Source: Candidatus Anoxychlamydiales bacterium (lineage in GTDB: Bacteria > Chlamydiota > Chlamydiia > Chlamydiales > SM23-39). From it: 25,208 bases of DNA. Shown piece by piece: positions 16,021-16,782 of this stretch. Numbering within the stretch: the stretch's first letter is position 1; the number at the start of each line of letters is the position of its first letter. The notes under the pieces are model-generated. The model was not told where the DNA came from, did not search any database, and was given only the letters and a program-made list of their open reading frames with translations. The stretch lies in NCBI GenBank assembly GCA_011064905.1, contig JAAKFW010000001.1, positions 1 to 25,208 on the forward strand, in the 5' to 3' direction. Both the position numbers and the translations under genes were made by a program.

Positions 16021-16782
16021 ATGACAACAATTACTAAAATAACACCCACATTTTATAGATGCGCTGAAACTTTAGGGAGAATAGACTTTGGGGTAACCGT
16101 AATAGCTAGCACTTGGAGAGTCTCCTTCTCAGATCTCTCTACAAAACAATATAATGTCACTTTATCACCTGATAAATTAGATCCCGAGTATGACTCTCGA
16201 AAAGACTCTCATAGAAGTTCTGAAGCTCGCTCTATACGCTCTAAATTTTCCGCTCCGCAACCTAAAAATTACTACATTCAAATAGATGATTCGCCTAAAT
16301 TTATTGAGTCGTTATTCAAAAAAACTATCTCTGAGAGATCATTAGCTGACGCTGCTAAAAACTCTAAAGATCACATCTTATGTCCTAAAAATGACAAAGG
16401 AAGACCTTTATACTTTTATGTTATTTCACCAAAAGATTTTGAACAAATCCCTAAAAACGAATTTGACGATATTTCAAATACAAAAGAAAAAATAGATGCA
16501 ATATCAAAAAATACAATTCTTACTTCTAAGGCCTTTTTTTCTTCAAATAAAGTAAGCGAAAAAGAATTAACAGATGAAAACCCCACCACAATTAACAGAA
16601 TTAAACGGCTCGAGCTTGACGAATTTGAATCTAAATTACTATTTCATGAACTTTTTGAGCAATACTTAATAATTTATATACAAGCAAAAAATCCAGCTAT
16701 TACAGATGAAAGAGCGAAAAAAGCAACTGAAAGAACTCCTCTTGTTAATAATCAAACATGTTCATGTTGCACAGTAGTTTAA
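16021..16782 (+). CDS. Hypothetical soluble protein ending in a CaaX-like box (CSCCTVV-stop)
   Basis: GAGAG SD-like sequence; Thr-rich N-terminus MTTITKITPT; final codons tgt tca tgt tgc aca gta gtt taa. Confidence 0.82.
   Translation: MTTITKITPTFYRCAETLGRIDFGVTVIASTWRVSFSDLSTKQYNVTLSPDKLDPEYDSRKDSHRSSEARSIRSKFSAPQPKNYYIQIDDSPKFIESLFKKTISERSLADAAKNSKDHILCPKNDKGRPLYFYVISPKDFEQIPKNEFDDISNTKEKIDAISKNTILTSKAFFSSNKVSEKELTDENPTTINRIKRLELDEFESKLLFHELFEQYLIIYIQAKNPAITDERAKKATERTPLVNNQTCSCCTVV

Follow-up and report, generated by a model that had tools for sequence, protein, structure and literature searches.

Why would a chlamydial protein end like a host-lipidated protein, and how did it come by such an end? 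The question is raised by an open reading frame (ORF) in the first 25,208 nucleotides of contig JAAKFW010000001.1 of a Candidatus Anoxychlamydiales bacterium (GenBank assembly GCA_011064905.1), a stretch that we refer to as a whole as the window. Positions 16021–16782 of the forward strand form a stop-free frame of 253 codons followed by TAA, and the encoded protein, P0001, has the C-terminus ...TPLVNNQTCSCCTVV, its last residues being NNQTCSCCTVV. It contains exactly five cysteines (residues 14, 121, 247, 249 and 250), three of which fall within the last seven residues at positions −7, −5 and −4 from the end; Cys250, at −4, opens the CaaX box C-T-V-V (16768–16779). A transmembrane helix is not predicted, the maximal 19-residue Kyte–Doolittle mean being 0.85 versus 2.54 in a tail-anchored neighbouring protein. 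An earlier note on this DNA had drawn attention to the frame, to the three cysteines in its last seven residues, to the CTVV end and to the missing transmembrane segment, and we found all of these in the same places. We give somewhat better than even chances to the reading that P0001 is a lineage-specific type III effector which is prenylated and S-acylated by the host. Comparison with its relatives indicates, moreover, that a nonsense mutation gave rise to the CaaX box, which took the place of an older Cys tail.

The box itself is of a kind that eukaryotic prenyltransferases accept. According to two genome-wide yeast screens, the well-modified class of geranylgeranyltransferase type I (GGTase-I) substrates has a free a1 position, a branched aliphatic residue at a2 and L, F, I, M or V at X, a specificity which the authors of the screens describe as common to the mammalian enzyme, while farnesyltransferase (FTase) disfavours only D, E, K or R at a2 and K, P or R at X (PMC11304957). 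CTVV fits the GGTase-I rule and also the FTase tolerances, and the boxes found among P0001 and its relatives (CTVV, CIVV and CTLV) all satisfy C-x-[V/I/L]-[L/F/I/M/V], with V or L at a2 and V at X.

How readily would such an end arise by chance? Terminal motifs were counted in 1295 crude ORFs of at least 80 amino acids from the 1.57-Mb genome, which is 92% complete. The genome-wide count suggested by the earlier note gave no enrichment for Cys at −4 alone, which is found in 18 ORFs versus 7–20 at other tail positions. The full GGTase-I-type box C-x-[VIL]-[LFIMV]-stop ends five ORFs versus 0.93 expected (Poisson P 0.003), and the same four-residue pattern occurs 0–3 times at each of 59 internal offsets. 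The five are P0001, a leucine-rich repeat (LRR) protein ending in CTIL, an ankyrin–patatin–NB-ARC–TPR protein ending in CKIL, EPSP synthase and a doubtful 101-amino-acid ORF; P0001 and the CTIL and CKIL proteins look like host-interaction proteins, the latter two being eukaryote-like. The LRR protein (G000:C130:591-1358; L010:591-1358) has 255 amino acids and a Ser/Thr-rich N-terminus, and close orthologues of it were not found; the CKIL protein (G000:C226:2552-7654; L011:1053-6155) comprises 1700 amino acids with ankyrin repeats, a patatin phospholipase, NB-ARC and TPR, and has no close orthologue in 60 genomes of its GTDB family. At least three cysteines within the last eight residues are present in 2 of the 1295 ORFs versus 0.41 expected. 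The second of these, G000:C101:257-988 (L013), encodes a ScdA/hemerythrin iron protein that ends in CPDCSCK, and with it a different explanation of the tail comes into view: P0001 might not be exported at all, its Cys cluster serving a metal (Zn, Fe, Ni), redox or envelope/membrane disulfide role in the bacterium and its CaaX box being due to chance, with which the unremarkable count of Cys at −4 agrees. We return to this explanation below, together with the data on secretion.

P0001 belongs to a family of 12 members, all of them Anoxychlamydiales-type sequences. Five homologs with 51–68% identity came from a word-indexed search among 5.8 billion proteins, five further, distant ones with 28–39% identity from an exhaustive comparison of the profile with 1.84 billion representatives, and a whole-genome profile search added a 212-amino-acid member from a same-genus genome (hhalign probability 96%, E 2e-9). 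The homologs and the sequencing runs carry source names that point to marine sediment as the habitat of this uncultured chlamydia. Within the GTDB family, 3 of 103 genomes give a match, the genome of the window included and all of them of its genus; 100 other genomes of that family from beyond the genus gave none, nor did 100 sampled genomes of the order when searched with the first version of the profile. Pfam, NCBIfam and PDB sequence searches with the family profile likewise returned no match for P0001. By position the close homologs are orthologues; they lie in a conserved block with the order SBP, a protein of 680 amino acids, MFS, a 264-amino-acid protein, a 149-amino-acid signal-peptide protein, P0001, a protein of 260–308 amino acids, ROK kinase, cupin and BrkB. 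Syntenic orthologues of the P0001 coding sequence (16021–16782, stop included) are found in loci L003, L004, L006, L007 and L014, and P0015, with 28% identity, likewise lies upstream of ROK. An additional ORF, P0016 (L022:225-452), encodes 75 amino acids that cover the C-terminal third of the family only and end in ...AKIFCCR, and is perhaps a fragment or a copy in decay.

The feature that unites these proteins is broader than the box. Conservation of Cys at −4 among homologs had been proposed as a check on the box; this cysteine is present in only 4 of the 12 members, and what is invariant is the C-terminal Cys cluster: All 12 carry at least two cysteines within about the last 12 residues, versus 1.2% of the ORFs of the genome. 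The CaaX box CC-[T/I]-[V/L]-V is found in P0001, P0003, P0004 and P0006 (the tail of the latter reads CLCCTLV), and in these four sequences the CC pair and the V/L-V end are invariant despite an overall divergence of 32–47%. In members lacking the box, CC(x)C comes after a segment of ten residues that is partly hydrophobic, with ends such as ...SVIKEIFADIFCCKCLP, ...SAIKEFFAKMFCCGS, ...SIKKIFCKMLCCCNCE, ...KVFFGMCCCKC and ...TFWRCFC. An insertion of 13–16 residues (columns 66–84 of alignment A2) is common to the four CaaX sequences and favours a single origin of the CaaX form. Since the most distant members carry the long tail, the long form is ancestral and the CaaX form derived.

The DNA at the 3′-ends of the genes records how the exchange took place. 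In the alignment, the TAA of the window (16780–16782), which corresponds to TGA in L003 and L014, stands opposite the Lys codon AAA of L007, whose long-tailed protein continues ...C-S-V-I-K-E-I-F.... Downstream of this derived stop, at 16793–16823 of the forward strand, 27 of 31 nucleotides are identical to the L007 DNA that codes for D-I-F-C-C-K-C-L-P-stop, the old TAA (16821–16823) included. This untranslated relic of the ancestral tail (once ...DIFCCKCLP-stop) lies in a frame that is shifted and closed downstream of the P0001 stop. Its score was reached by 0 of 2000 shuffles, control segments further downstream are at background, and L003 and L014 retain the relic with similar scores. The synonymous divergence (dS) is about 0.23 between the window and L003 and about 0.4 between the window and L007; for this reason the relic is young enough to have survived. 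Moreover, the place of truncation is a particular one: Of the 27 positions at which a tail of the P0005 type can be truncated, a single one leaves a GGTase-type box (CSVI), and it is there that the new stop is aligned. The possibility raised in the earlier note that the stop is an assembly artefact does not hold, as orthologues from independent assemblies terminate at the same place with TGA (L003, L014) where the window has TAA. Translation of the relic by frameshifting or read-through was considered and rejected, as a TGA just upstream closes its frame in the window. The relic is slightly better kept than neutral sites. A promoter-like sequence, TTGACA-17-AATATT with 10 of 12 matches (16787–16815, forward strand), overlaps it, and this overlap might explain the slightly better conservation.

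We then examined what the tail is attached to. Given a 10-sequence alignment, AlphaFold returned a model with a predicted local distance difference test score (pLDDT) of 73.4 and a predicted TM-score (pTM) of 0.75, an earlier model having reached a pLDDT of 61.9. Strands are placed between residues 3 and 143, helices between 145 and 223, and residues 235–253 are modelled as disordered. The predicted β-rich N-terminal domain (residues 3–143; 16027–16449, forward strand) contains invariant columns and motifs near W32, at ITL 46–48 and at YIQID 85–89; the helical C-terminal half (residues 145–223; 16453–16689, forward strand) lies in a region with pLDDT 86–94 (residues 141–230); and the disordered linker with the predicted lipidation tail (residues 235–253; 16723–16779, forward strand) has pLDDT 26–50. 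Within this tail, Cys247-Ser248-Cys249-Cys250 (16759–16770, forward strand) holds two predicted S-acylation sites, Cys247 and Cys249, and the predicted prenyl acceptor Cys250. Relatives of the fold were not found with Foldseek (best E 0.09 in the PDB and 0.16 in the AFDB clusters), VIA-align over 48,161 chains (best Z 4.1), the ESM Atlas (TM-scores of at most 0.3) or protein-language features; a recurring weak match to the SAS-6 head domain (TM-score 0.2–0.3) was rejected as noise. Pfam, NCBIfam and the fold searches did not reveal a GTPase domain upstream of the tail either.

The earlier note had regarded the N-terminal domain as unrecognised and had suggested a Foldseek search. Annotation and fold matches are indeed missing, yet the domain is not confined to P0001, as it recurs in tail-anchored paralogs. 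The family profile matches, weakly and reproducibly, the ORF at 8293–9009 of the window (forward strand; profile E 1.5e-5) and a neighbour of the 212-amino-acid member in the same-genus genome; in hhalign the probability is 84% when the single sequence is compared and 95% (E 2e-8, 85 columns) with a profile of three sequences. These paralogs keep the N-terminal β domain with its motifs near W32, ITL and YIQI, and end in S-[S/A]-C-C-N-L-K (SSCC at 8293–9009) followed by a hydrophobic, transmembrane-like stretch; MAFFT places their SCC in register with the S-C-C-T-V-V of P0001. A further distant paralog of the N-terminal domain with an SCC and transmembrane-like tail is encoded at 6578–7297 (forward strand), and in the same-genus genome the tail-anchored paralog (L030:639-1388) and the 212-amino-acid member, which ends in RCFC (L030:1414-2052), lie side by side upstream of an SBP gene. 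The N-terminal domain is thus combined with four C-terminal devices: SCC plus transmembrane helix, hydrophobic segment plus CC(x)C, RCFC, and CC-a-a-X. Judging by these sequences, their common denominator is membrane attachment in which cysteines take part.

Such a denominator might suggest that acylation alone accounts for the tail: P0001 would then be a translocated effector anchored by S-acylation only, and the resemblance to a CaaX box would be incidental to the shortening of the tail. Cys clusters without a box in 8 of the 12 members agree with this explanation, as do the juxtamembrane SCC motifs of the paralogs. Motifs of this type are S-acylated in eukaryotic membrane proteins. Effectors that are S-palmitoylated are known, for example SspH2 and SseI (PMC4951486), and by analogy with them the older tails of the family likely anchor by S-acylation. 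The truncated P0001 differs from these older tails in that it has neither a hydrophobic segment nor a transmembrane helix to bring its cysteines to a membrane. DHHC enzymes act at membranes, where a prenyl group is the usual primer. Moreover, of 27 positions the stop occupies the only one that leaves a canonical box, and a2 and X have stayed V/L and V in the four divergent CaaX members. Taken together, we consider anchoring by S-acylation alone decidedly unlikely.

A truncated tail also calls for a look at the selection acting on the gene. Ratios of nonsynonymous to synonymous divergence (dN/dS) were calculated according to Nei and Gojobori and compared with those of eight flanking genes at the same dS. 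For the P0001 gene, dN/dS is 0.80 between the window and L003, 0.94 between L003 and L014, 0.68 between the window and L007, 0.66 between L003 and L007 and 0.38 between the window and L006, while the eight flanking genes range from 0.08 to 0.20. The only other fast gene is that of the downstream 308-amino-acid protein (0.72 versus L003). On this measure P0001 is effector-like. Values near 1 for close pairs, a tail cut short by a nonsense mutation and the 75-amino-acid fragment copy in another sample could be taken as signs of gene decay, in which a protein under relaxed selection would be losing its function and the tail would have no role. Against such decay, every full-length member has an unbroken frame, at dS of about 1 and beyond, the fall of dN/dS to 0.38 at larger distances speaks for purifying selection, twenty invariant core columns are common to members down to 32% identity, and the truncated form has outlasted the split of the window and L003 (dS about 0.23), neither its Cys pair nor its V/L-V end having changed. 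We therefore regard decay as highly improbable.

If P0001 is an effector, a route out of the bacterium has to exist. The genome of the window encodes SctV, the type III export gate, and three CesT-type chaperones. The first 20 residues of P0001 (MTTITKITPTF...; 16021–16080, forward strand) constitute a weak candidate type III secretion signal: They are Thr-rich, without Leu and with one acidic residue, and the S+T content of residues 2–16 is at the 95th percentile among the ORFs of the genome, which bears out the Thr-rich N-terminus described in the earlier note. On two contigs (L015, L016), the gene of the distant homolog P0013 lies 76 nucleotides downstream of a CesT-family gene (PF05932, E 3e-25, 89 bits), the nearest PDB entry to whose product is the type III secretion chaperone ShcA; by its gene order this pair is a classical chaperone–effector arrangement, with P0013 as the putative effector. 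The CesT-family chaperone beside P0013 (L015:5416-5925) is 78% identical to one of the window's own genome (G000:C2:9727-10095), the two genomes being distantly related chlamydiae, and may be the broadly conserved multi-effector chaperone of chlamydiae. Beside the CesT genes of the window's own genome we found no paralog of P0001. A tblastn match on contig C192 was rejected as such a paralog, as it is a P-type ATPase, and the 149-amino-acid gene upstream of P0001 was rejected as a type III chaperone, as its product carries a signal peptide.

These data bear on the alternative introduced above, a role of the Cys cluster inside the bacterium. The absence of a chaperone gene beside the window copy and the structured look of the modelled N-terminus are in keeping with it, as is the metal-binding capacity of Cys-rich tails such as that of the ScdA/hemerythrin protein. 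The pairing of P0013 with a CesT chaperone gene is not; nor is the confinement of the family to an obligate intracellular lineage, with 100 sampled genomes of the order (first version of the profile) and 100 others of the family from outside the genus giving no match. P0001 has no signal peptide for targeting to the envelope, a dN/dS of 0.7–0.9 beside neighbours at 0.1–0.2 would be unusual for a housekeeping metalloprotein, and a vicinal CC flanked by hydrophobic residues and exchanged for transmembrane anchors in paralogs points to membranes and not to metals. On balance we hold such a bacterial role to be unlikely.

Host lipidation of a secreted P0001, as proposed in the earlier note, is the reading with the best support, though this support is partial and indirect; it comes from the fit of the box, the disordered tail, SctV, dN/dS, the missing fold match and the P0013–CesT pair, and further from the Cys cluster found throughout the family, the way in which the box originated, the exchange of anchors in paralogs and the excess of GGTase-type boxes in the genome. 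To these comes a search of the 92%-complete genome in which PPTA (PF01239), prenyltransferase-beta (PF00432) and DHHC gave no match, a soft negative in that two of three controls, PF00432 included, matched nowhere. Several observations weigh against this proposal. The CaaX box is found in only 4 of the 12 members, the other 8 having different Cys tails; the protein tree neither supports nor rejects monophyly of the four (p-AU, the P value of the approximately unbiased test, 0.31), and the CaaX member P0006 is less similar to P0001 than is the long-tailed P0005. A distinctive amphipathic helix in the older tails was rejected, as their hydrophobic moment does not exceed the genome background. 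There is no polybasic region beside the box, unlike in proteins of the K-Ras type: The basic patch RAKK..ER of the earlier note is weak, since R231, K233, K234 and R238 are interspersed with E230 and E237 and lie at least nine residues before the first tail Cys. Atypically for a type III signal, the N-terminus of P0001 shows conservation and takes the form of a β strand in the model, and its richness in S and T is lost in part of the family. Only in one distant lineage is a CesT gene the neighbour, the window and the syntenic orthologues having a signal-peptide gene upstream. High dN/dS is compatible with relaxed constraint as well, and Cys-rich tails can be metal sites, the sole other ORF of the genome with a three-Cys tail encoding an iron protein. 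Finally, a named natural substrate ending in CTVV, CIVV or CTLV was not found in the literature, though GGTase-I accepts Val at X.

Host lipidation of a type III effector would proceed as follows, each step, from secretion and the identity of the transferase through lipidation, proteolysis, methylation and acylation to the target membrane, being one that we infer for P0001 from its sequence. The protein would be translocated into the cytosol of a host that is probably an anaerobic protist, where host enzymes would read the disordered tail. Cys250 would receive a prenyl group, most likely geranylgeranyl from GGTase-I, though farnesyl is possible; −TVV would presumably be cleaved and the new C-terminus methylated, as in Ras and Rho proteins. 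Cys249 and Cys247 would be S-acylated by DHHC enzymes of the host, and the orphan globular domain would thereby be held on the cytosolic face of the host or inclusion membrane.

Parallels to such a course are known from other bacteria, as prenylation of injected proteins by the host is documented for Legionella and Salmonella (PMC4951486). AnkB, PelA-J and related Dot/Icm substrates of Legionella pneumophila, an intracellular parasite of protists, carry a CaaX box at the end, as P0001 does; only FTase or GGTase-I of the host can use it, and through the prenyl group these proteins are held at membranes of the host or the vacuole (PMC4951486). They differ from P0001 in their export by a type IVB system and in their unrelated globular domains; for P0001 the route would be type III, and CC-a-a-X is preceded by a further upstream Cys. 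What appears particular to P0001 is that a nonsense mutation created the box and left a relic behind, and that anchors are swapped within one domain family. We know of no report that the box of a Legionella CaaX effector arose when an older Cys tail was cut short. Another parallel is SifA of Salmonella (CLCCFL), a type III effector with a C-terminal Cys cluster whose CaaX Cys is geranylgeranylated by host GGTase-I (PMC4951486). The tail of P0006, CLCCTLV, has nearly the same pattern. P0001 and SifA are not related in sequence or fold, the CaaX Cys of P0001 is the second C of CC-T-V-V, and phylum and host range differ. Reinicke et al. reportedly found in 2005 that a Cys next to the CaaX Cys of SifA is S-acylated. 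For Salmonella SspH2 and SseI, acylation of Cys in the injected protein by host DHHC enzymes fixes the protein to membranes (PMC4951486); the sites in these effectors are single N-terminal cysteines, whereas those of the P0001 family would be C-terminal clusters. On the side of the host, the tails of RhoB, TC10 and H-Ras show the layout C-x(1-2)-C-C-a-a-X after a disordered linker, as in P0001. These tails provide dual anchoring by prenyl and palmitoyl groups. The likeness would be one of mimicry and not of homology, as P0001 has neither a GTPase domain nor a polybasic stretch. In the searchable literature, a prenylated or palmitoylated chlamydial effector has not been described. We put forward, tentatively and at less than even chances, that P0001 and its relatives are the first chlamydial effector family with a host-prenylation anchor, that one nonsense mutation gave birth to the box and swapped one host-lipidation code, a hydrophobic segment with poly-Cys akin to the SCC and transmembrane anchor of the paralogs, for another, and that the N-terminal domain has a new fold.

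The surroundings of the gene add some observations. Directly upstream of P0001 in all syntenic loci lies the gene of the 149-amino-acid protein (15427–15876, forward strand), which has an N-terminal signal peptide or transmembrane segment and a dN/dS of 0.14. Downstream, the 308-amino-acid protein (16969–17895, forward strand) combines an N-terminus rich in Ser and Thr with paired Cys motifs, a coiled coil and, at the C-terminus, a transmembrane helix (Kyte–Doolittle mean 2.54); it evolves at the pace of P0001 and looks like a second candidate effector. A promoter-like sequence upstream of its gene, TTGATA-17-CATAAT (16912–16940, forward strand), is invariant in five orthologous loci, and the whole intergenic region before this gene is better conserved than the P0001 coding sequence.

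If P0001 is indeed lipidated by its host, the strategy of host lipidation would extend to Chlamydiae and to the type III effectors of protist symbionts. The hosts of Anoxychlamydiales would then have to possess GGTase-I or FTase, and DHHC enzymes, which would provide a handle on who these hosts are. The orphan globular domain, reused with four kinds of anchor, is a candidate for a new effector fold. The locus would also constitute a natural experiment in motif birth, and an unusually clear one, in which a eukaryotic linear motif emerged from a stop codon, sister lineages keep the ancestral state and its relic persists downstream. Should the family prove to be the first chlamydial one with a prenyl anchor, it would be a case of short-linear-motif evolution in a pathogen caught in the act, and anaerobic chlamydiae would be seen to target the Ras/Rho lipidation machinery of their hosts.

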